Source: Candidatus Methylomirabilota bacterium
GTDB taxonomy: Bacteria > Methylomirabilota > Methylomirabilia > Rokubacteriales > CSP1-6
Reading direction: 5' to 3'
Assembly (NCBI GenBank): GCA_046726415.1
Contig: JBKPAK010000026.1
Location: 1 to 23,410, forward strand
Length of the DNA: 23,410 bases
How positions within the stretch are numbered: position 1 is the first letter of the stretch; the number at the start of each line of letters is the position of its first letter. The position numbers and the translations under genes were made by a program. Positions 458 through 21,563 of this stretch are shown here, piece after piece. The notes below the pieces were generated by a model. It made no database searches, had not been told where the DNA came from, and saw nothing but the letters and a program-made list of their open reading frames with translations.

Positions 458-636
458 TGCCCGACAACTGGGGATACGTCGTCGCCGCCTACGTTCTCAC
501 CGCGGCAATGCTGGCCGGATACTGGCGCCACTTGGTGCGGCGCGCCGCGGCTCTCGCCGCGCCGCGGCCGCCGCGGCGACGGCATCCGGGCGAGAAGATC
601 TGGCCGGCGCCGGGCTCGCCACCGGCACGTCCATGA
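457..636 (+). CDS. ccmD: Heme exporter protein CcmD (small single-TM protein)
   Basis: ATG at 457 overlaps ccmC TGA; MPDNWGYVVAAYVLTAAMLAGYW hydrophobic N-terminus followed by basic tail; located between ccmC and ccmE. Confidence 0.8.
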   Translation: MPDNWGYVVAAYVLTAAMLAGYWRHLVRRAAALAAPRPPRRRHPGEKIWPAPGSPPARP

Positions 637-1073
637 GGCGGCACCGCAAGTTCCTGGTGGGCGGCGCGATCATCGCACTCGCCCTCGGCTACCTCATCTA
701 TGCAGGCGTGACCCAATCCGCCGTTTACTTCGTCACCCCGGCCGAGCTGCGCGCGGGCCCGGTGGCCGGCAAAGCGTATCGGCTGGGGGGCATGGTGGCC
801 CCCGGGACCCTCGCGTGGGAGCCGCGGACGCTGGCTCTGAACTTCTCCCTCTCGGACGGCAAAGCCACCGTGCCGGTCCGCCACCGCGGCACGCCACCCG
901 ACCTGTTCGGGGAGGGCCGCGGTGCCGTCGTGGAGGGACGGTGGAACAAAGAGGGCTACTTCGAGGCGACCTTGATTCTGGCCAAGCACTCCGAGGAGTA
1001 CAAGGCGCCGCATGACCAGTCGGAAGCCGGCTACAAGGAGCTGCTCAAGACGTTGAAGGGAGCCCAGCCATGA
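633..1073 (+). CDS. ccmE: Heme chaperone CcmE
   Basis: N-terminal TM, YFVTP, RLGGMV, PDLFGEG, heme-binding HxxxY (AKHSEEY). Confidence 0.95.
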   Translation: MRRHRKFLVGGAIIALALGYLIYAGVTQSAVYFVTPAELRAGPVAGKAYRLGGMVAPGTLAWEPRTLALNFSLSDGKATVPVRHRGTPPDLFGEGRGAVVEGRWNKEGYFEATLILAKHSEEYKAPHDQSEAGYKELLKTLKGAQP

Positions 1074-3016
1074 CGGTGGAGATCGGCGCCGGCACCATCG
1101 TCGTGGCCCTGCTCCTGGCGCTGTACGGAAGCGGGGCCGCCGCGGCCGGAGCCCTCACCGGCAGGACGAATTTGGTGGTCTCGGCCCAGCACGCGGCGCT
1201 CGGCGTATTCCTGCTGGTCACGGGCGCCCTCGCGCTCCTGATCCACGCCTTCCTGCGCTTCGATTTCTCCATCCGATATGTCGCCACGAACACCAACCTC
1301 GGCACGCCCTTCTACTACCGCATCACCGCGGTGTGGGGCGCGCTGGAGGGGTCGATCGTCCTGTGGGCGTGGATGCTCGCACTCTACACGTTGATTGTGA
1401 TGATGCGCCATCGGCACAACGCCCGGGAGCTCTACCCCTGGGTTCTCACCGTCATGCTGGCCGTGCTCGCGTTCTTCTTGCTGGTGATGACGGGCCCCGC
1501 GCCGGTCTTCCAGCGGCTGAGCCCGGTGCCGCCCGACGGGCGGGGCCTGAATCCGCTCCTCGAGGACACCGGGATGATCACCCACCCGGTCTGCCTCTAC
1601 CTCGGCTTCACGGGGTTCACCGTGCCCTTCGCCTTCGCCGTCGCGGCCCTGGCCACTGGCCGCGTGGGCGACATGTGGATCACGCTGACGCGACGGTGGA
1701 CGCTGATCGCCTGGTACTTCCTCTCGCTCGGTTTGCTGATCGGCGGCTGGTGGAGCTACCACGTCCTGGGCTGGGGCGGTTACTGGGCCTGGGATCCCGT
1801 GGAGAACGCGGCCTTCATGCCCTGGCTGACGGGCACGGCCTTCTTGCACTCGGTGATGATCCAGGAGCGCCGCCGGATGCTGAAGCTCTGGAACATCTCC
1901 CTTGTCGTGCTGACGTTCAGCCTCACCCTTTTCGGGACGTTCCTCACCCGCTCCGGCATCATCGCGTCGGTCCACGCCTTCACCCAGGGTGCGATCGGGG
2001 CCTTCTTTCTGGCCTTCCTGGCCCTCGTCGTGTTGACGTCGTTTGCCCTGATCGCGTGGCGCTGGGATGACCTCCGGGCCCAGGGCGTGCTGGACTCGGT
2101 GGTCTCGCGCGAGTCGGCCTTCCTGCTCAACAACGTGTTCCTCGTGGCGGCGGCCTTCACCGTATTCTTCGGCACGGTCTTTCCTCTGCTCTCGGAGGCG
2201 CTGCGGGGCGAGAAGGTCAGCGTGGGTGCGCCCTTCTTCAACCTGGTCAACGTACCGCTGTTTCTCGCCCTCATTTTCCTGATGGGCGTGGGTCCTCTCA
2301 TCGCGTGGCGCCGGGCGTCGCTGCACAATCTCAAGCGCAGCTTCCTGGCCCCCGTGCTGGTGGGAATGGGGGCGGCTGGCTTCTTTCGCCTGTTGGGCAC
2401 CGCATCCGCGCTCACCGTGCTGACCCTCGCCCTGACGGCGTTCACCGCTGCTGCCGTGGGAGTGGACTTTGTCCGGGCCGTCCGGGCCCGCCTCCGCATG
2501 GGCGAGCGAGTTCTCCCCGCCGCCGGAGGGCTGCTCGTCCGTCACAATCGGCGCTACGGCGGCTTCGTCATTCACGTCGGGATCCTGATCGTCGCGCTTG
2601 GGGTGATGGGCTCGCACGCCTGGTCGGTGCAGACGGAGACCACGCTCAAGCGAGGCGAGGCCGCCGAGCTGGCCGGCTACAAGGTTCGCTTCGATGGACT
2701 CGCCGCGCGGGAGGAGTCCAACCACTTCAAGGTGGTGGGGACCTTTACCGTCTCCGACGGCAAGCCCGACTTCGCCGTGCTTCGCCCCGCCAAGAAGTTC
2801 TACCCGCAGGAGCAGAGCCCCATCGCCGGCGTCGACTATCGACTCGGCTTGAAGGAGGACGTGTACCTCGTCCTGGGTGACTTTGCGCGCGATGGTTCCC
2901 ACGCCACGATCAAGCTCCAGATCAACCGCTTGGTGAGCTGGATCTGGATCGGCGGCCTCATCCTCACGCTCGGCACCGCTCTGGCCCTGGTTCCCGACCG
3001 CCGGAGACCGGCGTGA
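1070..3016 (+). CDS. ccmF: Heme lyase CcmF
   Basis: WGGYWAWDPVEN WWD domain, GLNPLL, conserved His (ITHP, FLHS, SVHAF, IHVG); ATGA overlap with ccmE. Confidence 0.97.
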   Translation: MTVEIGAGTIVVALLLALYGSGAAAAGALTGRTNLVVSAQHAALGVFLLVTGALALLIHAFLRFDFSIRYVATNTNLGTPFYYRITAVWGALEGSIVLWAWMLALYTLIVMMRHRHNARELYPWVLTVMLAVLAFFLLVMTGPAPVFQRLSPVPPDGRGLNPLLEDTGMITHPVCLYLGFTGFTVPFAFAVAALATGRVGDMWITLTRRWTLIAWYFLSLGLLIGGWWSYHVLGWGGYWAWDPVENAAFMPWLTGTAFLHSVMIQERRRMLKLWNISLVVLTFSLTLFGTFLTRSGIIASVHAFTQGAIGAFFLAFLALVVLTSFALIAWRWDDLRAQGVLDSVVSRESAFLLNNVFLVAAAFTVFFGTVFPLLSEALRGEKVSVGAPFFNLVNVPLFLALIFLMGVGPLIAWRRASLHNLKRSFLAPVLVGMGAAGFFRLLGTASALTVLTLALTAFTAAAVGVDFVRAVRARLRMGERVLPAAGGLLVRHNRRYGGFVIHVGILIVALGVMGSHAWSVQTETTLKRGEAAELAGYKVRFDGLAAREESNHFKVVGTFTVSDGKPDFAVLRPAKKFYPQEQSPIAGVDYRLGLKEDVYLVLGDFARDGSHATIKLQINRLVSWIWIGGLILTLGTALALVPDRRRPA

Positions 3017-3038
3017 GGTCCGAGCGCCGGCCACTGGC

Positions 3039-3569
3039 ATGAAGCGCGCCTGGCGCTGGCTCATCCCTCTCTCCTCGATCCCCGTGTTGGCCCTGCTCGC
3101 CTATGGCTTCAAGCTGAGTCCCCGTGACATCCCCTCGCCCCTGGTGGGGCGGCCGGCCGCCGCGTTCACGCTCACCGCCTTCGATGGGCAGACGGTGTCG
3201 CTGGAGGCGCTGCGCGGACGCGTCGTCCTCGTCAACTTCTGGGCCTCGTGGTGTTACCCCGCCTGTTACGACGAAGCGCCCGCGCTCGAACGAGTCTGGC
3301 GCGTGTACCGCGATCGCGGGGTGACCTTCGTCGGCGTCGACATCCAGGACAAGCGGGAACCGGCAACGAAATTCATTCGCGACTTCGGGCTCACCTTCCC
3401 CAATGCACCCGACCCGACCGGCAAGGTGTCGGTGGACTACGGCGTCTACGGCGTCCCCGAGACATTTTTCATCGATCGCCACGGGAGGATCCGCGCCAAG
3501 CACGTGGGGGCGCTGACCGACCAGGCCATTCGCGAGAAGCTCGAGCGCTTGCTCGCCGAGCCATCCTGA
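3039..3569 (+). CDS. ccmG: CcmG/DsbE-type membrane-anchored thioredoxin (TlpA family) with CxxxC variant site
   Basis: N-terminal TM, IPSPLVG, VNFWASWCYPAC, YGVYGVPETFFID; position after ccmF. Confidence 0.88.
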   Translation: MKRAWRWLIPLSSIPVLALLAYGFKLSPRDIPSPLVGRPAAAFTLTAFDGQTVSLEALRGRVVLVNFWASWCYPACYDEAPALERVWRVYRDRGVTFVGVDIQDKREPATKFIRDFGLTFPNAPDPTGKVSVDYGVYGVPETFFIDRHGRIRAKHVGALTDQAIREKLERLLAEPS

Positions 3570-3570
3570 C

Positions 3571-4701
3571 GTGCGCGTGGTGCGGCTGCTCGTCATCGTG
3601 GGCCTGACCGTAGCGGCCCTCTACGCCTCGGGAGTAATCACCGTCAACATCGACGTCAACGTGCCTCGCCTGGGCGGCCAGCGGGCGACCGCCACACCCT
3701 TCTGGCAGGAGAAGAGGGCGGAGCCGCTGCCCGAGGGCCTGGCGTTCTGGGTCCACCTGGCGCGCGCGGTCAGGCCCGCCGTCGTCAACGTGAGCACCGC
3801 CCAGCGGACGCAGCGTCTTCCCGGCGGCGAGGAGTTCTTCCGCCGCTTCTTCGAGCGCGATCAGACGCGACCGCGCATGGCACTTGGCTCGGGCTTCATC
3901 GTCTCCTCCGACGGCTACGCGGTCACCAACGCTCACGTCATCGGGAACGCCGCCGAGGTCCTGGTGCGCCTCGCCGACCAGAGCGAGCACCCCGCGCAGC
4001 TGATCGGCACCGACCCGAAGACCGATATCGCCCTCCTCAAGATCGAGGCGAGCGGCTTGACGGTGATTCCCTTCGGGGACTCCGACCGTCTGGAAGTGGG
4101 CGAGCCCGTCATGGCCATCGGCAATCCCTTCGGCCTCGATCAGACGGTCACCACGGGCATCGTGAGCGCCAAGGAGCGGTTCATTGGAAGCGGACCCTAC
4201 GACGACTTCATCCAGACCGACGCCTCGGTGAATCCCGGCAACTCCGGCGGCCCACTCGTCGACGCCCGGGGCGCCCTGGTGGGCATCAACACGGCGATCT
4301 TCTCGGAGAGCGGCGGATCGATCGGGATCGGCTTCGCCATCCCCGTGAACCTCGCCAAGCAAGTGCTCCCGCAGCTGCGCGCCAAGGGACGGGTGACGCG
4401 GGGCTACCTCGGCGTCTCGGTGGGGCCGGTGAGTCCGGACGTCGCCAAGACCCTGGGCCTCGGAGTGCGGCGCGGGGCGTTGGTGGCCGAAGTGGTGCCG
4501 CGCTCCCCGGCCGCGCTGGCGGGGATCCAGCGCGGCGACGTCATCGTGGGGTTCCAGGACGCGGAGATCCAGAGCCCGCACGAGTTGACCCGCCGGGTGG
4601 CCGGCGCGGCTCCGGGCTCGCGTATCACCTTGTCCATCGTCACGCCGAGTGGGCCGCGCTCGCTCACCATTGCGCTGGTCGAGCTCAAGGACCGGCCGTG
4701 A
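3571..4701 (+). CDS. HtrA/DegP-family serine protease, N-terminal anchor plus one PDZ domain
   Basis: GSGFI, TNAHV (His), TDIALL (Asp), IQTDASVNPGNSGG (Ser), GYLGV PDZ. Confidence 0.95.
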   Translation: MRVVRLLVIVGLTVAALYASGVITVNIDVNVPRLGGQRATATPFWQEKRAEPLPEGLAFWVHLARAVRPAVVNVSTAQRTQRLPGGEEFFRRFFERDQTRPRMALGSGFIVSSDGYAVTNAHVIGNAAEVLVRLADQSEHPAQLIGTDPKTDIALLKIEASGLTVIPFGDSDRLEVGEPVMAIGNPFGLDQTVTTGIVSAKERFIGSGPYDDFIQTDASVNPGNSGGPLVDARGALVGINTAIFSESGGSIGIGFAIPVNLAKQVLPQLRAKGRVTRGYLGVSVGPVSPDVAKTLGLGVRRGALVAEVVPRSPAALAGIQRGDVIVGFQDAEIQSPHELTRRVAGAAPGSRITLSIVTPSGPRSLTIALVELKDRP

Positions 4702-5186
4702 CCCGACGCGTGCTCCTGGTTGTCCTGTTTGCCGCCAGTGTGGGGATCGGGGGGCGTGCCTGGGGGCCGGTGGCGGCCCAGCACCCGGCCGTGCACGTGG
4801 ACGAACGCGCGGTCTACGAAGTCGCCGCTGAGCTTCGCTGCGTGGTGTGCCAGAACCTGTCGGTGGCCGATTCGCCCTCGGAAATGGCCACCCAGATGCG
4901 CGCCATCGTGCGCGAACGCCTGGCCGCGGGTGACACACCGGAACAGGTCCTCCAGTACTTCGTCGAAAAGTACGGCGAGTGGATCCTGCTGTCTCCGCGC
5001 CGGCGGGGTTTCACGCTCCTCGTCTGGCTGGCTCCGCTGGTGGCGGTGGTGATAGGGCTGGGCCTCGTCATCGTGCTCCTGCGTCGCTGGACCCGCGCCG
5101 CCGCCCGTCGCGCTCCGGCGACCCCACGCGCGGTGGACGCCGCCATGAGCGAGCGGATACGACGAGAGATGGAGGTCGAGCCCTGA
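4698..5186 (+). CDS. ccmH: Cytochrome c biogenesis protein CcmH
   Basis: LRCVVCQN..ADSPS, YFVEKYGEWILLSP, C-terminal TM; GTGA overlap with protease stop. Confidence 0.93.
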   Translation: MTRRVLLVVLFAASVGIGGRAWGPVAAQHPAVHVDERAVYEVAAELRCVVCQNLSVADSPSEMATQMRAIVRERLAAGDTPEQVLQYFVEKYGEWILLSPRRRGFTLLVWLAPLVAVVIGLGLVIVLLRRWTRAAARRAPATPRAVDAAMSERIRREMEVEP

Positions 5187-6100
5187 GCGGAATCGTCGTG
5201 GCTGCCCTCGTCATCGGGGCACCTCTCTTTCTGTTCGCGCTCTGGCCGCTCCTGGCGCGCGGCGGCGGCACCCTCCTGCCCTTGCCCGCGGACGCCCGCG
5301 AACCGCTTCTCGAGCGCAAGCGGACGATCCTCCACGCCCTGCGCGAGCTGGCCTTCGAGCACGGCTCCGGCCACATCGCCGCTGACGACTACGCAGAGCT
5401 GCGCGCACGCCACGAAGCCGAGGCGGCCGAGATCCTCACGGAGTTGGACCGCCTGGGACCGGCTCCTGCCTCCGCGATGCCGGCGCCGGAAGCAACGGCG
5501 ACGGCGCCGCGCGGTTGGCGTCATCCGGCGGCCGTGGCCGTGGGTGCCGTGGCACTTCTGGTCTTCGGGATCGCGCTTGGCGCCGGAGTCGTGCGCTACA
5601 CGACGCCCGAGCCTGGACCCGCCACCCCGGCTGCGGGCTCGCGCCCGCTGGCGCCTCCCCTCGGAGCGGGTGAGACGGCGCCGGCAGCCGTGCCCGGCCG
5701 CGCCTCGGAGAAGCTCAGCCCGGAGGTACTGCAAGGCATGCTTCAGGCCGCGCGCGGAAGTCTGTTCGAGGGACGCTATGCCGAGGCGATTGCCGCCTAC
5801 CAGGCGGTGCTCAAGCGCGACCCGAAGAACGTCGACGCGATGACGCATCTGGGCTTGATCGTCGCCCTCGGGGGCCATGCCGACCAGGCGCTCGAGACGC
5901 TCGACCGCGCCCTCGCCCTTGATCCGAACTATCCGCCCGCCCTGCTCTACAAGGGCCAGATCCTTCTCGAGTCCAAGCGCGATCCCAAGGCCGCCATCGC
6001 GTCGTGGGAGAAGTTCGTGGCCGTCGTTCCTCCCGGCGAGGAGCGCGATCGCGTGGCCACGCTGATCGCGGAGGCCAAGACGCGCCCCGCTGCGCGCTGA
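5183..6100 (+). CDS. CcmI/CycH-like TPR membrane protein (apocytochrome chaperone); probable CTG start
   Basis: TM ending LWPLL, LRELAFE..G.I...DY..LR motif, second TM, C-terminal TPRs; CTG at 5183 overlaps ccmH TGA with GGAGG at 5171-5175. Confidence 0.8.
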   Translation: MSGIVVAALVIGAPLFLFALWPLLARGGGTLLPLPADAREPLLERKRTILHALRELAFEHGSGHIAADDYAELRARHEAEAAEILTELDRLGPAPASAMPAPEATATAPRGWRHPAAVAVGAVALLVFGIALGAGVVRYTTPEPGPATPAAGSRPLAPPLGAGETAPAAVPGRASEKLSPEVLQGMLQAARGSLFEGRYAEAIAAYQAVLKRDPKNVDAMTHLGLIVALGGHADQALETLDRALALDPNYPPALLYKGQILLESKRDPKAAIASWEKFVAVVPPGEERDRVATLIAEAKTRPAAR

Positions 6101-6110
6101 AGCTGACCAA

Positions 6111-6821
6111 CTAGTCCGCGAGGTACACCCAGATCTTCGCGGCAGCTGGCAGCCCGAGGGCGATGGTGCGGCCGTCTCCCGAGGCGGTGATCGTCCCCGC
6201 CCACGGGGCCACTTCCGTGATCTGCAGACGGCGGCCGGGACGCACCTCGTTCCTCCAGAGGTACTCGAGAAGGTTCTTGTCGGCCTCGGCCTCCTCCGTG
6301 ATCCGCTCGACGACGACGGTCTTCCCCTCCTTGGCCTGATTGAGCGGGAACACCTCGACGCGGGAGGGCTCGGACATCCCGGGAATGGGGTTGCCATGTG
6401 GGCATGTACTCGGCATGCCGAGTAGCTCGGCCAGGCGGTCCTCGACGCGGGGGGAGAGCGCGTGCTCCAGACGGTGCGCTTCCTCGTGGGCGTCCGTCCA
6501 GTTCATCCCGAGGGTGTCGGTCAGCCAGCGCTCGAGCAGCCGGTGCCGACGCGCCATGGCCTCTGCCACGTCGCGTCCCTTCGCGGTGAGGAACAGTTCT
6601 TTGCCCGCCCCCACGCGCACGTACCCTCCGCGCGTGAGGCGCTGCATCGACTCGGTCACCGCGGGCGCGGAGATGGCGAGGTGTTTGGCCAGGCGGGCGG
6701 CGATGACCGGCTTGCCGCTTCCCGCGAGATCGTAGATGGCGGCGAGGTAGTCCTGCACCGAGGCGGTGGCGTTCATGGAGGCCGCCCGACTTCGGGATTT
6801 TAGGCTTGACACCTTCTTCAT
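6111..6821 (-). CDS. DtxR/MntR-family metal-dependent repressor with C-terminal FeoA/SH3-like domain (alternative start 6776)
   Basis: QDYLAAIY, HTH (LAISAPAVTE), RRHRLLERWL, AHEEAHRLEH, CPHGNPIPG. Confidence 0.95.
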   Translation of the reverse strand: MKKVSSLKSRSRAASMNATASVQDYLAAIYDLAGSGKPVIAARLAKHLAISAPAVTESMQRLTRGGYVRVGAGKELFLTAKGRDVAEAMARRHRLLERWLTDTLGMNWTDAHEEAHRLEHALSPRVEDRLAELLGMPSTCPHGNPIPGMSEPSRVEVFPLNQAKEGKTVVVERITEEAEADKNLLEYLWRNEVRPGRRLQITEVAPWAGTITASGDGRTIALGLPAAAKIWVYLAD

Positions 6822-6833
6822 ATTAAGTATACC
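6806..6833 (+). promoter_or_regulatory. Putative sigma70-type promoter for the Fe3+ ABC genes
   Basis: Perfect TTGACA at 6806-6811; weak -10 candidate TATACC at 6828-6833 in an AT-rich island. Confidence 0.5.
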
Positions 6834-6837
6834 TAAT
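6822..6837. promoter_or_regulatory. DtxR/SirR-type operator palindrome ATTAAGTATACCTAAT
   Basis: Near-perfect 16-bp inverted repeat; minus strand core TTAGGTATACTTAA resembles the SirR/MntR box TTAGGTTAACCTAA; lies between the regulator and the transporter. Confidence 0.75.
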
Positions 6838-6859
6838 CATTGAGGCGCGATCTCGCTCC

Positions 6860-6889
6860 AGTATAGTCCAGTCGTTCCCGCGCGGGCAA
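6860..6889 (-). promoter_or_regulatory. Putative promoter of the DtxR-family gene
   Basis: Minus strand TTGCCC (6889-6884), 18-nt spacer, TATACT (6865-6860). Confidence 0.45.
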
Positions 6890-6968
6890 CGAGAACGGCT
6901 GCACGCGGCTACTCCAGCACTAGGGACCACTGACCATGCGCATCACGCACGTGAAGGGACCGGTGACT

Positions 6969-7984
6969 ATGCGCACGACACACCGAGCGCTCGGCATCGC
7001 TGTGGCGGCCGTGGCCTGGGCGGCCATCGGGCTGCTTGGGAAGACTGCTCCGGCGGCGGCTCCCGAGGTCGTCGTTTACTCCGCGCGGCACTACGGTCAG
7101 GAGCCAGCTTTCCAGGCGTTCACCCGGAAGACGGGAATCGAGATCAAGATCCTCAACGGCAATACCGGCGAAATGTTCGAACGCCTCAAGGCAGAGGCCG
7201 ATAAGACGCCCGCCGACATCCTCATCACGGTGGATGCCGGGAATCTCTGGAACACGGCTCGGGCCGGCCTGCTCTCCAAAGTGGACTCTCCGGAGCTGAC
7301 CGCTAACATCCCCGCCCACCTCCGCGACCCGGACAGTCGCTGGTTCGGGCTCACCGTGCGAGCGCGGACCATCGTGTACAACACCAGCAAGGTCAAGCCG
7401 TCCGAGTTGTCGACCTATGAGGCGCTGGGCGACCCGAGGTGGAAGGGACGGCTCTGCCTCCGGCCGTCGGGGTACATCTACAATCAGTCCATGATCGCCA
7501 CCATGATCAAGCGGCATGGCGAACCGCGCACCGAGGACATCGTGAGAGGCTGGGCGGCCAACCAGCCGATCCTCATCAACGGCGATACCAAGATCCTCGA
7601 AGCCATCGCGGCCGGCCAGTGCGACGTCGGCGTCACCAACCACTATTACCTGGCGCGCATCGTGGCCAAGGATCCCGCGTTCCCGGTGGCGCCCTTCTGG
7701 GCCAACCAGACCACCACCGGAACCCACGTGAACGTGTCGGGAGCCGGGGTCACCGCGCATGCCAAGAACCACGCGAACGCCATCAAGTTCCTCGAGTTCC
7801 TCTCGAGCCCGGAAGCGCAGCAGATGTTCGCCGACGTTTCCATGGAGTACCCGGCGAACCCGCAGGCTTCGGTGAACCCGATCGTGGCCAAGTGGGGCAA
7901 GTTCAAGCAGGAGGACATCAACGTCGCGTCCGCCGGAGAATTCCAGGCCGCGGCCACCAGGCTCGCGGACCGGGCAGGCTACAA

Positions 7985-7988
<4 letters not shown>
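6969..7988 (+). CDS. Fe3+ ABC transporter substrate-binding protein, FutA/FbpA type (alternative start 6936)
   Basis: Signal peptide; YSARHY, PADILITVDAGNL, WFGLTVRAR, YIYNQS, NHYY tandem Tyr ligands; GAAGGGA upstream of ATG 6969. Confidence 0.93.
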
Positions 7989-12680
<4,692 letters not shown>

Positions 12681-12755
12681 GGACGACCGCGGCCAGCCGT
12701 GCCTCAGCGCCCGCCGCAGAACCGGACGCCGGCCATACCAGGCAAGGAGGACACC

Positions 12756-13433
12756 GTGATCGACGCCCTGCGCAAGATTTCCAGCCCCAGCGTGGCCAAC
12801 GCCATCGAGACCTTCAAGGTGCGCCCGCGCCACCAGGGACAGATGTCGTCGGAGATCAAGACACTGTTTCCCGAGATGGGTCCGCTGGTCGGCTATGCCG
12901 TCCCCGCCATCATCCGGGCCGAACCCCAGCCGATAGAGGGCCATCGCGCCAGCACCTACGGGTGGTGGGACTATGTGCTCTCCATCCCCGAGCCCCGGGT
13001 GGTGGTCGTCCACGACCTCGATGAGCCGCGCGGCCAAGGCGCCCAGTGGGGCGAGGTGCAGGCCAACATTCACAAGGCCCTCGGCTGTGCCGGCGTCATC
13101 ACCGACGGCTCCGTCCGGGACCTGGACGAGGTGCGTGGCCTCGGCTTCCAGTTCGCCGCGGCCCACGTGTCGGTCTCGCATGCCTACGTCCACATGGTGG
13201 ACTTCGGGCTCCCCGTGAAGGTCGGCGGCCTCTGGGTGAAGCCCGGAGACCTCTTGCACGCCGACCATCACGGGGTGGTGTCGATTCCCTCCGACATCGC
13301 CAAGGGGATCCCGGAGGCGGTGGCCCGCATCGAGGCCGACGAGCGAAGGATCATCGGCGTCTGCCAGGCCCCCGACTTCTCCCCAGATAAGCTCAAGGCG
13401 CTCTACGCGCAGATCCGTCCCGGCACCTACTAG
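12756..13433 (+). CDS. RraA / HMG-CHA aldolase family protein (alternative start 12699)
   Basis: VANAIE, GAQWGEV, GVITDGSVRDLDE, VKPGDLLHADHHGVV; AAGGAGG upstream of GTG 12756. Confidence 0.88.
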   Translation: MIDALRKISSPSVANAIETFKVRPRHQGQMSSEIKTLFPEMGPLVGYAVPAIIRAEPQPIEGHRASTYGWWDYVLSIPEPRVVVVHDLDEPRGQGAQWGEVQANIHKALGCAGVITDGSVRDLDEVRGLGFQFAAAHVSVSHAYVHMVDFGLPVKVGGLWVKPGDLLHADHHGVVSIPSDIAKGIPEAVARIEADERRIIGVCQAPDFSPDKLKALYAQIRPGTY

Positions 13434-13557
13434 AGCATGGCGGAGAATCGAGGAACGCCCCGGGCGATGATCCGCCCTCCGCGAGACGCCACCCTAGGGG
13501 GTGGAGTACCGCGAGGTGCGCTTCGACACCGGCGGCTCGGATGACCAGGAGGCCTTC

Positions 13558-14019
13558 ATGACCCCCAAGGAAGAACTGTTGAACCAGGCCGCGCGCGAAT
13601 TCAACGCCTTCCAGCAGGCCATCCATGGCTTGAACGAGGATCAGCTCACCGAGGTGTGGCTGGGCACGTGGAGCGTGCGGGAGATCGTGGCCCACATCGC
13701 GAGCTGGCATCGCGAGATGGGTCCCGCGCTTCAGCGGTTGGCCCGCGGCGAGAAACCCATCGCCGACGGCGTCTCCTACGAGGACGTCGACACCTGGAAC
13801 GCTCGGTTCGTCGCCGCCAAAAAAGACTGGCCGCTCGAGGAGATTCTGCTCGAACTCGACCGCAGTCACGAGTATTTCATGCATGTGGCGGACACCGTGC
13901 CCGAGGAGCGGGTCCAGCCCGGCAAAACGGCCCATCGCATCATCGATGCGAATAGCGCCCACCACTATCAGGAGCACGGTGACCAGATTCGCGCCTGGCG
14001 CGCGGCCCGGGATCTGTGA
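13558..14019 (+). CDS. DinB/ClbS-DfsB superfamily four-helix bundle protein
   Basis: WSVREIVAHIASW, DTWNARF, HHYQEH His cluster; AGGAGG upstream of ATG. Confidence 0.85.
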   Translation: MTPKEELLNQAAREFNAFQQAIHGLNEDQLTEVWLGTWSVREIVAHIASWHREMGPALQRLARGEKPIADGVSYEDVDTWNARFVAAKKDWPLEEILLELDRSHEYFMHVADTVPEERVQPGKTAHRIIDANSAHHYQEHGDQIRAWRAARDL

Positions 14020-14060: not shown

Positions 14061-15077
14061 TCACTCGAGCAATGCCACGGTGACCACGCGCTCGCCCGCC
14101 GCCACTGTCGACAAGGTCGTGGTCCGGACGAACAGCCCATCGGCGGGAGCGAAAATCGTCTCGACGATGTCACCATACACGTTCTCGATACGAGCGAGGC
14201 GGTCGCCGGTCCGCACCACCGCACCCAGCGTCGCCTCGGTATAGAGCAGGCCGCCCCGGGTGGAGCGCAGGCCGAGGAACTCGCGCAGCCTGATCGTGGT
14301 GGCCGGCGCTTCCACCTCCCCGGGAATCATCCTCAGGTAGCGAAGCGCATTCAGCACGCAGCGGGCGCCGGTGGCCACCGCGTCGGCTTCGAGACGTCCA
14401 CCCTCGCCGATCTCGAACGTGAAGCACGGGACGCCGGCCCGGGTGGCCTCCACGCCCAGAATGCCGTCGCGCACGTACATCCCCGCGGTGGTCTTCATGA
14501 TATAGCCGGAACCGAACGCCACGGCCAGGGCTTCGGCGCGCCGCGCGGGGTCGCCGAGCGCCGGCGGGGGCAAGATCGAGATGGGGACGTAGCGGCCGCC
14601 GCGAGTGGGGGTGTGGATGTCGATCGCCCACTGGCAAGCGCCGATGAGGCCGAAGAGCGTGTGCGCGATCACCTCGGCCAGGGGACCCGACGCGCTGCCC
14701 GGGAAGCAGGACCAAGGATCGATCGGCATCTGATCCAGCGGTGACTTCAGGTAGTGGCTGACGGGGATGCGGTGGTCCGCGTGCAGGGCCAGGGGATTTT
14801 GGACCAGGACGCAGACGAGGCTTCCGGCCATCTCGGCGGGGTCGACCTGTTGGAGGGCGCGGCCCAGCAGGGCGACGCCTCCGACTTCATCGCCGTGGAT
14901 GCCCGCACCGAGGTAGAGGCGCGGCCCCGGCCGCGCGCCGTTGACGAGGAGCACGGGAAGCGTCGCGGTCAAACCATCGGCCAGCTCGATGAGGGGCAGA
15001 GAGTGGCGCACGGCCGCGCCCGGCGGCACCGTGACTCCAGCCAGGCGTTGCGCGAAGCGCTCCGTGGCTCCCGTCAT
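14061..15077 (-). CDS. Succinylglutamate desuccinylase/aspartoacylase (M14) family Zn hydrolase
   Basis: GIHGDE, QNP, IDIHT, FTFEIG, C-terminal barrel-sandwich (APADGL); ATG overlaps the monooxygenase stop. Confidence 0.9.
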   Translation of the reverse strand: MTGATERFAQRLAGVTVPPGAAVRHSLPLIELADGLTATLPVLLVNGARPGPRLYLGAGIHGDEVGGVALLGRALQQVDPAEMAGSLVCVLVQNPLALHADHRIPVSHYLKSPLDQMPIDPWSCFPGSASGPLAEVIAHTLFGLIGACQWAIDIHTPTRGGRYVPISILPPPALGDPARRAEALAVAFGSGYIMKTTAGMYVRDGILGVEATRAGVPCFTFEIGEGGRLEADAVATGARCVLNALRYLRMIPGEVEAPATTIRLREFLGLRSTRGGLLYTEATLGAVVRTGDRLARIENVYGDIVETIFAPADGLFVRTTTLSTVAAGERVVTVALLE

Positions 15078-16567
15078 GATCGCGGGCGATCTTCCCCCCT
15101 GGGAGGGTCGGCGGGCAAGTCGTAGCCCGCGAGGCACCGATCGACCATCGCGCGGGCGGCGGCGAAGTCGAAGGAGCGGAAGGCCCGGATCGACGTCGTC
15201 TGGGCGCGACCGCCGGCATAGAACAGCTCGTACTGCTGATGGCGGCCGGCGAACTCGGAGCCCACGAGGTCCCAGGCCAGCTTGTAGAGCTTGACGCGCT
15301 CGACCGACTTGAGCCCGGGCGAGCGGACGAAGCGGTCGAGGTCGGCGGCGATTTCCGGATTGAGATAATCGCGATACGACGACGGCACCTGCAGGAGCCC
15401 ACCACCCGACAGCTCGCGCAGGTACGTCACCATCGTCTGGTAGTACGTGGCCTGGAGCCAGTTGTTCGCGTAGAGGTATGTCGGGTGGGGATAGACGAAG
15501 CCGCGCGGGTCGAGCTGGCACTCGCTCTCCGCCGCTACCACCAGGCCGGCGGCCATGCCGCAGTAGCTGGCCAGCTCGCCCAGCGCACTCTGGGTCTCGC
15601 GCAAGGAGTCCACCCCCATCGACTCGGCGATGCGCAGGCCCAACCCGGCCAGGAACTCCGCCTTGGCGGCGAAGCGGACCTGGGCCTGGAAGTTCCCGAG
15701 CAGATGCGCGGGCGTCTCGTAGAACTGCGCTCGGGTGAGCGCGACGTTGCGGTAGACGAACACGCGCTCCCAGGGGACGAACACGCGGTCGAAGATGACG
15801 AGGGCGTCCGTCTCGTCGAAGCGGGCGGAGAGTGGATAGTCGTACACGCTCGGCGCCGTCTCCGCGTACGGGCGCCGCACGATCATGCGCAGTCCCGGCG
15901 TGGCGGCCGGGACGGCAAACGACAGGGCGTAGTTCTCGTCGCCCGGTTGCAGGGGGTTGATGCAGCTCACGAACACCTCGTTGGAGATGGCGGCCCCGGT
16001 GCCGAGCATCTGGGCTCCCGTCACCACGATGCCGTCCGACCGCTCCGCGACCACGCCCGCGTAGAGGGTCGGATCGTCCTGGCGGTGCGCCGGCTTCGCC
16101 CGGTCGACGATGGGCGGGATGATGACATAGCTCGCGTACAGATCGCGGTCCCGGAGGTAGGCGTGGTAGCGCACCACGTTCTCGCCGAAGCGCGCCCCCG
16201 CCTGGGCGAAGAGGTCGGGGCGAAGGGCGAAGCCGGTGATGAACCCCGGCACGTGGTCGGGCGAGCGGCCCATGAGTCCGAAGGTCGCCTCGGCCCATAG
16301 ACGATGGGCGCGCCGTCGCGCCGCGAGGTCCGCCCGAGTTCGCGGCAGGAGAAAGGACGCATTCACCGGCGCTCCCGTGGCCGGTGACGGAAACGTCATG
16401 ACGTCGCGGTGCTCGGGGGCCGCGGCCAGGTCGTACAGGTTGGCGATGCTGCGCACGGCGGCGCGGAATGCCAGATGTTCGGTCACGTCCAGCGCGCGCT
16501 CTCCGTTGACGAAGACCGTGCGCCCATCCCGGAGGCTCTCGACGTACTGCGCTCCCGTGCGAAACAT
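15074..16567 (-). CDS. 4-hydroxyphenylacetate 3-hydroxylase (HpaB) family group D flavin monooxygenase, oxygenase subunit; substrate unknown
   Basis: RTGAQYVESLRDGR, MGRSPD, DYPLSARFDETDA, FVPWERVF, LAWDLVGSEFAGRHQQYELFYAG. Confidence 0.93.
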   Translation of the reverse strand: MFRTGAQYVESLRDGRTVFVNGERALDVTEHLAFRAAVRSIANLYDLAAAPEHRDVMTFPSPATGAPVNASFLLPRTRADLAARRRAHRLWAEATFGLMGRSPDHVPGFITGFALRPDLFAQAGARFGENVVRYHAYLRDRDLYASYVIIPPIVDRAKPAHRQDDPTLYAGVVAERSDGIVVTGAQMLGTGAAISNEVFVSCINPLQPGDENYALSFAVPAATPGLRMIVRRPYAETAPSVYDYPLSARFDETDALVIFDRVFVPWERVFVYRNVALTRAQFYETPAHLLGNFQAQVRFAAKAEFLAGLGLRIAESMGVDSLRETQSALGELASYCGMAAGLVVAAESECQLDPRGFVYPHPTYLYANNWLQATYYQTMVTYLRELSGGGLLQVPSSYRDYLNPEIAADLDRFVRSPGLKSVERVKLYKLAWDLVGSEFAGRHQQYELFYAGGRAQTTSIRAFRSFDFAAARAMVDRCLAGYDLPADPPRGEDRPRS

Positions 16568-16784
16568 GACCTCGCCATTCTCCACGAGACAGTGGCCCGC
16601 GCCAAGACCACGCGCACTCGCTGCCACTCGCGTGGCCCGACGGCCCGGCGGTTTCGCCTCGGGTTGGTGGGAGACCGTTCGAGAAGGTGGCTCGCTATCG
16701 GCTTGTCCCCACGCTGTCTCTGGGTGGTCGAGGCCCAGGAGGAATCTGCGACGAGAGTTGGTCTGGAGCCGCGCTTCGGCGGCC

Positions 16785-17475
<691 letters not shown>

Positions 17476-17489
<14 letters not shown>

Positions 17490-19254
17490 AGAGCTCTCCC
17501 GACCCCAAGTAGGCGCGGATGACCTCGGGGTTCTGACGGATCTGGGCGGGCGATCCCTCCGCGATCCGCTGACCGTGATTGAGGACGACGATGCGGTCGC
17601 ACAGCCCCATGACCAGGGTCATGTCGTGCTCGACCAGGAGCACGCTGATGCCACGTACGCGGATCTGCTCGATGAGCCGCATCAGGCGCTCGGTCTCCAC
17701 CGCGTTGAGGCCGGCGGCGGGCTCGTCGAGCAGCAGTACGGACGGAGCCGGCGCCAGCGCGATGGCCAGGCCGAGGAGTCGCTGTTCGCCGCACGAGAGG
17801 GTGCGGGCGGCCACCTCGGTTTTGTGGGCGAGGCCGACAAAGGTGAGGATCGCGGACGCGCGGTCTCGCAGTTGGCGCTCCTCGTAACGGTGGCCGGGGG
17901 TGCGCAGCACCAGGGCCAGCAGTCCCGTGTGCGCGAGGCGATGACACGCCGTCAGCACATTGTCGATGGCCGAGGCTTCGGGGAAGATGCTCGTGCGCTG
18001 GAACATGCGGATGAGGCCCAGTTCGGCGATTCGATGCGGAGCGAGACCGCGGATGTCGCGTCCCGCGAAGGTGACCCGGCCCGCGTCCGGAGGCTGGAAC
18101 CCGGTCATCACGTTGAACGCGGTGGACTTGCCCGCGCCGTTGGGACCAATCAGAGCGAGGATCTCTCCGCGCGCGAGCTCGAGACCGACGTCCTGTACGG
18201 CCGCCAGCCCTCCGAATCGCACGGTGACGTCGCGCATGGCGAGGGCGGGCCCTGCGCGATCATCCAGCCGGGCGCTGTCGGCCGGGAGCGTCGCCCCGAC
18301 GGGCCGCGGCGACATCGCGGCCGGTACCCTCGCGGGCAGAGCGCGCCGGAGATAGAACACGATGCCGCGCGGCATGAACAGGACGACGAGAAGCAGGATG
18401 ATGCCGTAGAGCAGCATTCGGTAGAAGACCGCCATGCGCAGCAGCTCAGGCACGAAGGTGAAGACGAGGGCGCCCACGGCGGGGCCCAGGATCGTCCCTT
18501 GCCCGCCTCCCACCACCATCACGGTCATCGTCACGGTGTTGTGGAAGCCGAACAGCTCCGGGGACAGGAAGGTGACGTAGTGCGCGTAGAAGCTGCCCGC
18601 CGCGCCCGCCAGCACGCACGCCACCACGAGCGCGAGGATGGTGTGGCGGTAGGCTCCGATCCCCGACGACTCGGCCAGGCTCTCGTTGCTGCGGATCGCT
18701 GACAGCGCGCGGCCCACGCGCGACGAAAGCAGCCGCGCGGTCAGGAGTAGCGTGCCCCCGCCCATCGCGATCATGAGGTAGTAGTAGTCGCGCTTGCTGA
18801 TCAGGGTGAAGCGCTCCGGACCCACGGCGAAGGGGGGCACGCCCGGCAATCCCATCGGCCCCTGGGTCAGATCGGTCCAGTTGGTGGCCACCAGGCGAAT
18901 CACTTCGGCGAAGCCCGTAGTCACTAACACGAAGTACGCGCCGCGAAGCCGCAGAGTGAGGCGCCCCAGCAGGTACCCGACCAGCCCGCTGATGGCGCTG
19001 GCCGCGGCCAGCGCCATCAGCGGAGAAAGCGTGAAGTGTAGGGCCAGCAACCCCGAAGCGTAGGCGCCGATCCCGAAGAAGGCGGTGTGTCCGAGATTGA
19101 GCTGTCCCGCGGCGAGCACCAGGTTCATGCCCGCCGCCAGCATGAAAAAGATCCCGGCCATGATAAGAAGATGGAGGTAATAGTCGTTGACCCCGACGAG
19201 GGGCAAGAGGACGGCAGCTCCCACCGCGACCGCGCCGAGGACGCGAGCGGTCAC
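17476..19254 (-). CDS. Fused Liv-type permease (LivM-like) + ATPase (LivG-like)
   Basis: [20 protein letters not shown], then [28 protein letters not shown] in one frame; GTG overlaps the livH-like stop. Confidence 0.92.
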
Positions 19255-20126
19255 CGCGGGATGCTCTTCTTCCCGAAGAGCCCCTGGGGACGCCACAGCA
19301 GAAGCAGGATGATCATGATGAAGCCGATGGCGTCCTTGTAGCCGGACGAGATATAGCCCGCCCCCAGACTCTCCGCGACTCCGAGCAGCAACCCCCCGGC
19401 GATCGCCCCGAGGAAGTCACCGAGACCACCCATGATCACGACGGCGAAGGACTTCAGCGCGGCGAGGTCGCCCATGGCTGGGTAAACCCAGAAGATTGCG
19501 CCGAGGAGCGCCCCCGACGCCCCCGCCAGGGCTGCGCCGAAAGCAAAGGTGGCCATGTAGATCCGATCGACGTTGACACCCGTCAGTCGGGCCATCTCGG
19601 TGTCCTGGAACGTCGCCCGCATGGCCCGGCCCAGTCGTGTCTTCCGGATAAAGAGATGCGAGCCCGCGATGAGCGCGACCGCCATGACCCCCGCGAAGAT
19701 GCGGATGGCCACGACGTGCACGGGGCCGAGAGTGAGGGGCGCGGGCGAGAACGGCGGGCGGATCGACTTCGGCGACGGATCCCAGATCAAGATCGCGAGA
19801 TTTTGAATGATCACCGAGAGCGCTACCGTGGCCAACATGGGTATCTCGAGCGGCTGGTCGCGCAGCCGACGCAGCACGAGCCGCTCCACCATCGCCCCCA
19901 CCACCCCCACCCCGATCACCGCCAGCAGACCGGCGACAAAGAAGTTGAGGCCGCTCAGAGTGAACAGCGTGAACAGGAAGAAGGCGCCGAGCATGTAGAA
20001 CTCGCCGTGCGCGAAGTTGACCACGCGCATGATGCCGAAGATGAGAGTGAGTCCGATCCCCATCAGGGCGTATCCGCCCCCGAGGATCAGGCCGTTGACG
20101 ATGTGCTGGACCAGCTCGGCGATCAT
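19251..20126 (-). CDS. Liv-type ABC permease, LivH-like
   Basis: NGLILGGGYAL.GIGLTLIFGIMRVVNFAHGEFYMLG, TRLGRAMRA, GGLG, RPQGLFG. Confidence 0.95.
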   Translation of the reverse strand: MIAELVQHIVNGLILGGGYALMGIGLTLIFGIMRVVNFAHGEFYMLGAFFLFTLFTLSGLNFFVAGLLAVIGVGVVGAMVERLVLRRLRDQPLEIPMLATVALSVIIQNLAILIWDPSPKSIRPPFSPAPLTLGPVHVVAIRIFAGVMAVALIAGSHLFIRKTRLGRAMRATFQDTEMARLTGVNVDRIYMATFAFGAALAGASGALLGAIFWVYPAMGDLAALKSFAVVIMGGLGDFLGAIAGGLLLGVAESLGAGYISSGYKDAIGFIMIILLLLWRPQGLFGKKSIPR

Positions 20127-20132
20127 TTGAGA

Positions 20133-20297
20133 TGGGGGGCCTCGAGCGGGCCCCCCAAGCCCCCCACGCGCTCGGGACGGCCCGGCGCAGCCGGGCCGCC
20201 CCTCGATCCCGCGCCGGCTTGGGGTCGCCCCACACCGCCCCCTACACCCTCAGCACGATCCCGCCCAGCCGGGCCGCCCCTCGATCCCGCGCCGGCT
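20133..20297. repeat. REP/BIME-like composite of hairpins with a perfect 32-bp direct repeat (20188-20219 and 20266-20297)
   Basis: TGGGGGGCC-N7-GGCCCCCCA; CGGCCCGGC-GCA-GCCGGGCCG; two copies of CAGCCGGGCCGCCCCTCGATCCCGCGCCGGCT. Confidence 0.8.
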
Positions 20298-20301
20298 GTG
20301 G

Positions 20302-21501
20302 TCACTTTGCGGCGGCCATCTCCCAGAGCTTCGTGCTCGGCGTCACCGCCACCACGGCGTACTTGCCGTCCTTGACCTGGGTCAGGATGATGTTGCAGTA
20401 GCTCTGGCCGTTCTGATCGAACTTGACGAGCCCGTACAGTCCCTTCATCTCGAGGCCGCGCAGGGCGGCTTGGACCTTGGCGGGCGTGGGCTCCTTGGCG
20501 ATCTCCAGCGCCTTGGCCACTACGTTGACGCCGTCGAAGCCGCGCATGCCTTCGACCACGCCGATCCAGGGCAGGTTGCGCTTCTTCCACTCGTCGACGA
20601 ACGCTTTGCTGGCCTCGGGGTCGCCCGCCATGGCGAAGTCGTAGGGATTGTAGAACGTGATGAACATCGCCCCCTCGGCTGCCTTGGCGCCGGCCAGCTG
20701 CACGATGGAATCCGGCCACGCCGAGCCGCCGGTGACTACGACCTTCGCGTTGAGGCCGAGTTCCTTCATCTGCTGCAGCATCTTGGCGGTCTTGGGCGCG
20801 TCGTCGGTGATGACCACGCTGTCCACGCCGGCTGCTTTGAACTTCGTGAGCTGGGCGTAGAAGTCGGTGTCGGCCTGACCGACGTACTCCACCAGCTCCA
20901 CGGTGGCTCCGGCCCGCTTGAGCACATCGCCGAAAGCCGTCACCGCGCCCCGTCCCCAGTCGGTGTTGACCGCGATGTAGCCAACTTTCTTCATGCCGAG
21001 CTTGGGCAGCACGGCTTCGAACCCCTTCGCCTCCAGCTCGCTGGTTGGGCTGATTCGGCTCACCACCTTCTGGCCGGGCGTTTTCGGATCGGTGATCTTG
21101 ATGGAGCTGGAGGTCTCCACCACGAGGGGCACGCCGTGCTGCGCGGCCAGCGGCATCATGGCCAGGGTCATGGAGCTACCCCAGGCCCCGATGATCACCG
21201 GCACCTTGTCGCGCACGATGAGCTTCTCGGCTGCGTTGCGCGTCTCGGCAGGGTCGGACTTGTTGTCCTCGATGATCAGTTCGAGTGGGCGGCCGAGCAC
21301 CCCACCTTTGGCATTGATGCGATCCACCGCGATCTTCGCGCCGTTGGTGATGTAGGAACCGGCCGCCGCGATGGGGCCGGATAGCGGCTGGATGAGACCG
21401 ACCTTAATGGGCTCCTTCGTCTGTGCCTGCGTCGTCCAAAGGCCGGCCGCGACGACGCCGACGGCCACGGCCACGCACGCCACGCGCTTCACGCTCTTCA
21501 T
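20302..21501 (-). CDS. Liv/HAAT-family ABC substrate-binding protein
   Basis: Signal peptide, IKVGLIQPLSGP, INAKGGVLGRPLELIIED, TDFYAQL, G..KFDQNG; AAGGAGG RBS. Confidence 0.94.
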   Translation of the reverse strand: MKSVKRVACVAVAVGVVAAGLWTTQAQTKEPIKVGLIQPLSGPIAAAGSYITNGAKIAVDRINAKGGVLGRPLELIIEDNKSDPAETRNAAEKLIVRDKVPVIIGAWGSSMTLAMMPLAAQHGVPLVVETSSSIKITDPKTPGQKVVSRISPTSELEAKGFEAVLPKLGMKKVGYIAVNTDWGRGAVTAFGDVLKRAGATVELVEYVGQADTDFYAQLTKFKAAGVDSVVITDDAPKTAKMLQQMKELGLNAKVVVTGGSAWPDSIVQLAGAKAAEGAMFITFYNPYDFAMAGDPEASKAFVDEWKKRNLPWIGVVEGMRGFDGVNVVAKALEIAKEPTPAKVQAALRGLEMKGLYGLVKFDQNGQSYCNIILTQVKDGKYAVVAVTPSTKLWEMAAAK

Positions 21502-21547
21502 GGGTTGGCGCCTCCTTGGGGGTTGGGACGTTTCGCCTCGCCTCTCA

Positions 21548-21563
21548 AGCAAGAGGCCTGCCT
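21548..21563 (-). promoter_or_regulatory. Putative sigma54 (-24/-12) promoter of the ABC-monooxygenase cluster
   Basis: Minus strand AGGCAGGCCTCTTGCT versus consensus TGGCACGNNNNTTGCW, exact GG-N10-GC spacing, 46 nt upstream of the ATG. Confidence 0.6.

Follow-up and report, generated by a model that had tools for sequence, protein, structure and literature searches.

The described systems closest to the locus reported here are the HpaB/HpaC two-component flavin monooxygenases (Thermus thermophilus, structure 2yyg; Escherichia coli, 6qyh), whose HpaB enzymes are widely used as hydroxylation biocatalysts, the AstE/AspA zinc deacylases (succinylglutamate desuccinylase, aspartoacylase, and DoeB/EutE, 6twl), and the LIV-I/HAAT importer LivJHMGF. 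Members of these three families stand together in a stretch of 23,410 nucleotides (nt) from a Candidatus Methylomirabilota bacterium (GenBank assembly GCA_046726415.1, contig JBKPAK010000026.1, positions 1 to 23,410; about 68% G+C), hereafter the window. Abundant in soil and as yet uncultured, the Methylomirabilota (Rokubacteria) encode very many Liv-type transporters without an assigned specificity. The minus strand of the window carries six co-oriented genes (14061-21501) that encode a Liv-type importer, an HpaB-like oxygenase, and an M14 deacylase. Scans of the long open reading frames (ORFs) with Pfam and NCBIfam models placed all six on this strand, as an earlier note on this DNA had described; the end coordinate given there, 21563, is the 5' end of a promoter-like motif upstream of the gene of the substrate-binding protein (SBP). 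The features are as follows.

14061-15077, minus: AstE/AspA-family (M14) zinc deacylase, 338 aa (PF24827, 92.8 bits; cutoff 25)
15040-15077, minus: deletion scar, i.e., the HpaB stop/ATG overlap and 5' codons derived from an M20 gene, joined in frame to M14 (junction alignment with the closest locus, L001)
15074-16567, minus: oxygenase subunit of an HpaB-family two-component flavin monooxygenase, R/H/Y clade, 497 aa (HpaB_N, PF11794, 325.6 bits, cutoff 35; HpaB, PF03241, 176.2 bits, cutoff 25)
16568-16784, minus: LivF-HpaB spacer, 217 nt, without counterpart in L001
16785-17471, minus: LivF-type ATPase, 228 aa (LivF model, 262.7 bits; cutoff 441)
17476-19296, minus: LivM-LivG fusion, 606-aa ORF (BPD_transp_2 at residues 40-305; ABC_tran and BCA_ABC_TP_C at residues 368-600)
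19251-20126, minus: LivH-type permease (BPD_transp_2, 152.6 bits)
20127-20297, no strand: two tandem copies of a GC-rich dispersed repeat of about 80 nt with two hairpins, in the SBP-LivH spacer (repeat comparison)
20302-21501, minus: SBP of the Liv/HAAT-type ABC importer, 399 aa (Peripla_BP_6, 234 bits; signal-peptide-like N-terminus)
21548-21563, minus: sigma54-like -24/-12 motif AGGCAGGCCTCTTGCT, 46 nt upstream of the SBP start (consensus match)

We propose that these genes form a catabolic or salvage operon of this Methylomirabilota bacterium. We give about even chances to a role in which a phenolic, amino-acid-like compound, N-acylated or gamma-glutamylated, is taken up, deacylated, and hydroxylated in the ortho position. 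The Liv/HAAT-type importer would take up an amino-acid-like carboxylate that has a phenolic or enolisable ring and a group held in amide linkage (N-acyl or gamma-glutamyl-type). In the cytoplasm, the AstE/AspA zinc deacylase would cleave the amide bond, in most relatives together with an M20 deacylase of the ArgE/DapE family, and the HpaB-clade oxygenase would hydroxylate the ring next to its existing hydroxyl with flavin reduced by an enzyme whose gene lies elsewhere in the genome. Both the substrate class and the order of these steps are those suggested by the gene content.

The association of the two enzymes is conserved across phyla. An alignment of 19 M14 homologues was used to scan one genome per species, which gave 79 distinct loci (numbered with an L below), and their neighbouring genes were identified by tblastn with the window proteins, by clustering of the predicted neighbours, and by domain scans of representatives. 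An HpaB-like gene is found upstream of M14 on the same strand in 57 of these 79 M14-anchored loci, directly upstream (at most 200 bp) in 45 and 358-2615 bp away, with other genes between, in 12 further loci. The remaining 22 have no HpaB-like gene, four of them reaching less than 200 bp upstream. When only the 70 loci that extend at least 1600 bp upstream are counted, 52 contain HpaB and 18 do not. The pairing singled out in the earlier note is thus kept over a broad range of genomes. It is carried by Methylomirabilota (13 loci), by many Alpha-, Beta-, and Gammaproteobacteria, and by one Streptomyces, and the presence of the cassette in cultured Bradyrhizobium, Methylobacterium soli, Hansschlegelia, Methylopila, and Ancylobacter makes its function open to genetic testing. 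The cultured carriers include Bradyrhizobium sp. URHD0069 (L012), Methylobacterium soli YIM 48816 (L020), Hansschlegelia beijingensis DSM 25481 (L024), and Ancylobacter lacus (L011). The closest locus, L001, from an uncultured Candidatus Rokubacteria metagenome-assembled genome, shows full synteny with the window (CimA, SBP, LivH, LivMG, LivF, HpaB, M14, DinB, RraA, LigA), its proteins being 81-94% identical in amino acids to those of the window, and the named best protein-database matches to HpaB and M14 belong to Rokuibacteriota or Methylomirabilota.

Several other genes recur in the cassette. An M20 deacylase of the ArgE/DapE family (TIGR01910, 219 bits against a cutoff of 217.6) is present in 50 of the 79 loci and lies directly beside M14 in 36, and a MarR regulator is found in 29. 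The window contains no flavin reductase gene (PF01613, E<=1e-3), in keeping with the contrast that the earlier note drew to classical HpaB/HpaC clusters, but an HpaC-type reductase of this family is encoded inside the cassette in at least 13 of the 79 loci, a lower bound obtained with a single query. The transporters vary among loci and comprise Liv-type, SBP_bac_3 with a fused permease-ATPase, TRAP, and TctC systems. Further recurrent neighbours encode a gamma-glutamyltransferase, RidA, a PuuE-like hydrolase, hydantoinase A/B, and SDR and GMC oxidoreductases, and an Asp/Glu racemase also appears among the companions. Within the Methylomirabilota the order is transporter-HpaB-M20-M14 in L001, L015, and L036 and HpaB-M20-M14-transporter in L003, while L002 and L072, which end at M14, show the M14-transporter part. 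Since the gene order is permuted and yet the same genes stay together, the importer and the enzymes appear to be functionally linked. The cassette is again joined to a Liv-type transporter in the Bradyrhizobium loci L012 and L033 and in L063.

The cassette of Streptomyces sp. TP-A0874 (L075, 1151-14750) has a different setting. Its HpaB-M14-M20-flavin reductase genes follow a nonribosomal peptide synthetase (NRPS; A-T-C-A-T) and a P450 and precede a TauE-family exporter and an alanine racemase, so this copy may serve biosynthesis or tailoring rather than catabolism.

The oxygenase is a full-length member of the HpaB family, which belongs to the group D flavin monooxygenases, and its best solved match is the Thermus HpaB (2yyg, E 4e-85). 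Together with the automatic annotations, which call it a 4-hydroxyphenylacetate 3-monooxygenase, this match would fit an ordinary hpa cluster for 4-hydroxyphenylacetate or a tyrosine-derived compound, to which the hydrolase is a fortuitous neighbour. However, the protein does not reach either 4-hydroxyphenylacetate 3-monooxygenase equivalog (TIGR02309, HpaB-1, 346.2 bits against 480.2; TIGR02310, 287.6 against 885.2). Its alignment with the Thermus enzyme shows that R100 is kept, whereas Y104 is replaced by His (His105), H142 by Tyr (Tyr147), and S197/T198 by Ile/Asn. We take R100, Y104, and H142 to be the phenol-binding residues of the Thermus enzyme and S197 and T198 to be the carboxylate-binding ones, their positions here being those given by the alignment. 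Tyr and His are found at these positions in all five solved HpaBs whose alignment covers this segment (2yyk, 2yyg, 9lft, 6qyh, and 6eb0), whereas each of the 50 HpaB-like ORFs recovered at full length, from the cassette loci and from the window, has Arg101/His105/Tyr147 (R/H/Y). Among 105 full-length representatives taken from the best 150 matches of an exhaustive search, 15 are R/H/Y, 37 R/Y/H, and 28 R/F/H. A FastTree phylogeny of 155 sequences groups all 65 R/H/Y tips in a single clade of 76 tips (support 0.996), and the window oxygenase is thus placed by its sequence in a distinct HpaB clade. The R/H/Y enzymes are marked by the signature GRSPDH ... DLYxSYV. This separate position, the exchanged residues, the low equivalog scores, the retention of the hydrolase neighbour in 57 of 79 loci, and the lack of hpaC or hpaD-I genes in the window make an ordinary hpa cluster very improbable.

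The position equivalent to T198 is Asn or Val in the Methylomirabilota and Arg in most proteobacteria; therefore, the specificities of the cassette oxygenases may differ in detail between lineages. We found no fusion of HpaB with M14, the HpaB fusions seen being with DUF2848 or NRPS modules. Four alphaproteobacterial loci (L011, L025, L069, and L077) carry a second HpaB paralogue of the R/H/Y clade upstream of MarR, which adjoins a PuuE-like hydrolase in three of them, accompanied by an NAD-dependent epimerase in L011 and L025. This paralogue hints at two hydroxylation steps or two substrates.

The M14 enzyme also departs from its described relatives. Its ligands and catalytic residues (H61, E64, H155, E222, and R103) are invariant in 19 out of 19 aligned homologues and, since the zinc ligands, the catalytic Glu, and the conserved Arg are all kept, it should be active. 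Nevertheless, the segment that reads xNRxFPG in the structures of 3cdx and DoeB is DPWSCFPG in the window protein, so that the Asn-Arg motif is missing. The pattern DPW-x-x-FPG is invariant in the M14 family of the cassette, as are D120 and W122 and a motif of its own, HTPTRGGRY. The best solved match is 3cdx, a protein of unknown function (E 3e-17), and the DoeB/EutE equivalog TIGR02994 is not reached (56.3 bits against 402.7). Thus, neither enzyme is close to a characterised one, and the departures from the substrate-binding motifs that the earlier note had pointed out in both, i.e., the Tyr/His exchange with Ile/Asn in HpaB and DPWSCFPG in M14, are real. A search of the ESM Atlas returned only generic AstE/AspA clusters, tblastn against 72,556 plasmids gave no M14 match at E<=1e-40, and no second Pfam domain was found in a 496-aa M14 homologue (P0094).

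The window differs from most relatives in having lost the M20 gene, of which no remnant was found at E<=1e-3. The 3' end of HpaB, the ATGA in which its stop codon and the M14 start overlap, and the next 24 nt or so match the HpaB-M20 junction of L001, and from there on the window matches the 5' region of the L001 M14 gene. Because the junction switches in this way from one region of L001 to the other, the body of the M20 gene has been removed by an in-frame deletion. The first 10-17 codons or so of M14 derive from the start of the deleted gene, and therefore the homologues align only from about residue 12. The ATGA overlap between monooxygenase and hydrolase, which the earlier note had pointed out, does exist, but it is secondary, a relic of the HpaB-M20 junction. 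M20 appears to be accessory, since it is not found within reach in 29 of the 79 loci, 19 of which carry HpaB (e.g., L005, L033, and L048).

The deletion raises the question of whether the operon is a decaying remnant that here no longer runs a complete pathway, having lost M20 and standing without a nearby reductase or regulator, a state that would be compatible with the other readings. Apart from the removal of M20 relative to the fully syntenic L001, the 217-nt insertion between LivF and HpaB would agree with decay. Nonetheless, none of the six ORFs is disrupted, M14 retains all the residues that are invariant in its family, the deletion preserves both the reading frame and the translational coupling, and the lost gene is the one that many relatives, including HpaB carriers, do without. 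We therefore regard decay as doubtful.

All the importer components belong to their Pfam families and none reaches the LIV-I or urea (Liv, Urt) equivalog cutoffs. The SBP gene probably starts at the ATG at 21501, which is preceded by GGAGG. Its product scores 134 bits with the LivJ model NF011933, so far below the cutoff of 477 that the model does not define a specificity, and among solved structures its closest relatives bind amino acids (3td9, E 1e-34). The LivH-type permease stays under the cutoffs of both LivH (157 against 379) and UrtB (180 against 250), and the LivG part of the fusion protein reaches 265 bits against 362. The probable start of LivM-LivG is the GTG at 19254, which overlaps the LivH stop codon (GTGA). 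This fusion is common to the Methylomirabilota relatives and one betaproteobacterial locus (cluster c16, six sources, i.e., the window and five loci). The short N-terminus of LivF is likewise seen in L001 (92% identity over residues 1-228).

Upstream of the SBP gene, the motif AGGCAGGCCTCTTGCT has two mismatches to the sigma54 consensus TGGCAC-N5-TTGCW. Taken alone, the sigma54-like promoter of the earlier note is weak, since three such matches were found in the window against 7.06 expected by chance. However, L001, L015, and L036 share with it a core, GGCA(G/A)G-N3-TCTTGCT, located 44-95 nt before the SBP gene in spacers that otherwise align poorly. The core is thus present in all four sources in which the SBP gene comes first (the window and these three loci, about two independent lineages) and absent in L002, L003, and L072, where the SBP gene follows M14. 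The operon may be expressed from a sigma54-type promoter, for which this recurrence gives moderate support. Neither sigma70 promoters nor terminators above chance were detected in the region.

Taken together, the context favours a phenolic carboxylate of the N-acyl amino-acid type. The substrate would be an amino-acid-like carboxylate because the transporters are of amino-acid, TRAP, and TctC types and the nearest solved relatives of the SBP bind amino acids; the M20, RidA, and Asp/Glu racemase companions fit this class as well. It would carry an amide-linked group because the cassette combines two deacylase families known for N-acyl amino acids with a gamma-glutamyltransferase. A phenolic ring turned into a catechol is suggested by the retained Arg/His/Tyr set and by an occasional extradiol dioxygenase. 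A LigB-type class III enzyme of this kind adjoins the cassette in three of the 79 loci, all from Methylomirabilota (L015, 1762-2553; L036, 1605-2396; L045, 3-845), its gene being divergent from the SBP gene in L015 and L036 and accompanied by RidA and a GntR regulator in L045.

The earlier note had considered, among other options, the hydroxylation and ring hydrolysis of an N-containing heterocycle. The HpaB-like enzyme would then hydroxylate the carbon beside the ring nitrogen of a heteroaromatic acid (e.g., a pyrrole, imidazole, or pyridine carboxylate), and M14 and M20 would open and trim the lactam tautomer, with a logic like that of the Rut pathway. Such a route would agree with the lack of a ring-cleavage dioxygenase in 76 of the 79 loci, with the frequent presence of at least two amidohydrolases per cassette, with the RidA, PuuE-like cyclic amidohydrolase, and hydantoinase A/B genes near some loci, and with a swapped His/Tyr pair that makes the active site unlike those of the phenol-specific HpaBs. 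On the other hand, the known members of both hydrolase families, judging from the NCBIfam names, cleave linear N-acyl amino acids and not rings, and the Arg/His/Tyr set still resembles a phenolate-binding triad. In the literature that we could search we found no enzyme of the HpaB family acting on heterocycles of this kind, and we know of none for pyrrole-, imidazole-, or pyridine-type rings. The heterocycle route is the less likely reading, though a serious rival because ring-cleavage genes are usually absent, and the transporters, the second deacylase, the gamma-glutamyltransferase, the triad, and the LigB genes of three loci all point to the phenolic N-acyl compound.

Several observations nevertheless weigh against a pathway that deacylates and hydroxylates such a phenolic compound. 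A ring-cleavage gene adjoins the cassette in only three of the 79 loci, and no LigB-type extradiol dioxygenase was found in the window, which leaves the fate of the catechol unexplained. M14 occurs without HpaB in 18 of the 70 loci with sufficient upstream sequence, often together with M20, SDR, or GMC oxidoreductase genes, and for this reason the deacylase also works in other contexts. As M14 lacks the Asn-Arg pair that we take to bind the substrate carboxylate in aspartoacylase, the amine that it releases may not be a standard alpha-amino acid. Since M20, reductase, and regulator are missing from the window, the copy found here could be partly disabled, and Pfam and NCBIfam scans detected no gene for a sigma54 enhancer-binding protein in the window. 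Moreover, the substrate itself cannot be read from sequence.

The usual absence of ring-cleavage genes would be explained if the R/H/Y oxygenases catalysed a new reaction. The cassette of R/H/Y HpaB, DPW-type AstE/AspA, and ArgE/DapE enzymes would then represent an undescribed and widespread soil pathway for a common natural amide, with new HpaB chemistry at the swapped His/Tyr site, for example an ipso-hydroxylation with release of a C-N bond or the hydroxylation of an N-heteroaromatic ring. Tyrosine-like or aminophenol-like compounds conjugated to N-acyl or gamma-glutamyl groups would be candidate substrates. We consider this extension unlikely as a whole.

Within the operon, two gaps are of considerable size, the one separating SBP from LivH (175 nt) and the one separating LivF from HpaB (217 nt); the latter measures 7 nt in L001. 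The 217-nt spacer was considered as a possible riboswitch or other RNA element, and this was rejected because it has no Rfam match in the window and folds no better than shuffled sequences (z -0.59). No copy of it was found elsewhere in the compared loci, and it could carry an internal promoter. The SBP-LivH gap is filled by the two tandem copies of the repeat of about 80 nt, whose two conserved hairpins contain the core ATGGGGGGCC...GGGCCCCCCAAGCCCCCC...CGCTCG...CCTCGA. A third copy of this GC-rich intergenic repeat lies between LigA and the Kelch gene (11655-11745), and six are found in the 21-kb L001 (263-353, 3802-3903, 10986-11063, 12162-12240, 17415-17495, and 19373-19445), while relatives with a short SBP-LivH spacer have only a single GC hairpin in that spacer. 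The repeat resembles a repetitive extragenic palindromic (REP) element or a miniature inverted-repeat transposable element (MITE) of this lineage.

The genes around the operon were also examined as possible members of the pathway. A citramalate synthase gene lies upstream on the same strand (TIGR00977, 820 bits), but this is a housekeeping function whose gene is syntenic in L001 and L003 alone, and it was discarded. Downstream, and convergent to the operon, are a DinB/DUF1706 gene, an RraA-like gene, a Kelch protein gene, and LigA. The earlier note had speculated that the DinB (13501-14019) and RraA-like (12699-13433) proteins catalyse later steps; this idea does not hold, because RraA recurs in one of the 79 loci (L001) and DinB in two (L001 and, 6 kb away, L019). 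The Kelch-repeat beta-propeller protein (11637-12680) has a weak similarity to NanM-type mutarotases, and its translation probably begins past the repeat copy at 11655-11745.

Farther away, the window contains a System I cytochrome c maturation cluster (633-6100) that encodes CcmE, CcmF, the thioredoxin-like CcmG, CcmH, and a tetratricopeptide repeat protein, with a DegP/HtrA-type serine protease bearing a PDZ domain (3571-4701) inserted between CcmG and CcmH. At 6111-9595, an iron-type ABC transporter (SBP, 6936-7988; permease within the ORF 7439-9595) diverges from the gene of a regulator of the DtxR/MntR family (6111-6821, minus) that has FeoA as its C-terminal domain.

The literature search, from which subscription-only papers and bioRxiv supplements were out of reach, gave no description of an HpaB-M14 pairing. 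The parts come from known superfamilies, and what is new is not a principle but a catabolic cassette that is conserved, as yet uncharacterised, and built on two unusual clades of enzymes. Tying one Liv-type transporter to a defined enzyme pair provides a testable handle on the diet of the Methylomirabilota, and the HpaB clade with exchanged Tyr and His and the AstE/AspA clade without the canonical Asn-Arg pair are clear targets for enzymology.

Among known pathways, the cassette can be compared with the Rut pyrimidine pathway, which consists of a flavin monooxygenase, a reductase, an amidohydrolase, and RidA, and with the ectoine Doe pathway, which uses an AstE/AspA deacetylase. The common feature is an importer or an oxygenase accompanied by amidohydrolases that free nitrogen from an amide-containing small molecule. 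The resemblance is only one of analogy; the Rut oxygenase family is unrelated to HpaB, and the Doe pathway has no oxygenase.

With the HpaB/HpaC systems, the window oxygenase shares the fold, the family, and the phenol-site Arg, and in many relatives of the locus its gene is accompanied, as there, by an HpaC-type reductase and a MarR regulator. It differs from them in the exchanged Tyr/His pair, the replaced S197/T198, and a separate clade below the equivalog cutoffs, and its partners are metallo-deacylases in place of the hpaD-I meta-cleavage genes. The M14 enzyme has the PF24827 domain, the His-x-x-Glu...His zinc site, the catalytic Glu, and the conserved Arg of the AstE/AspA deacylases, but its similarity to them is remote, DPW-x-x-FPG replaces the Asn-Arg pair, and HTPTRGGRY is its own. 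Finally, the importer provides the same five functions as LivJHMGF and belongs to the same family, but it scores under the Liv/Urt equivalog cutoffs, its LivM and LivG are fused, and its genes, in an order permuted among relatives, are tied to those of catabolic enzymes.

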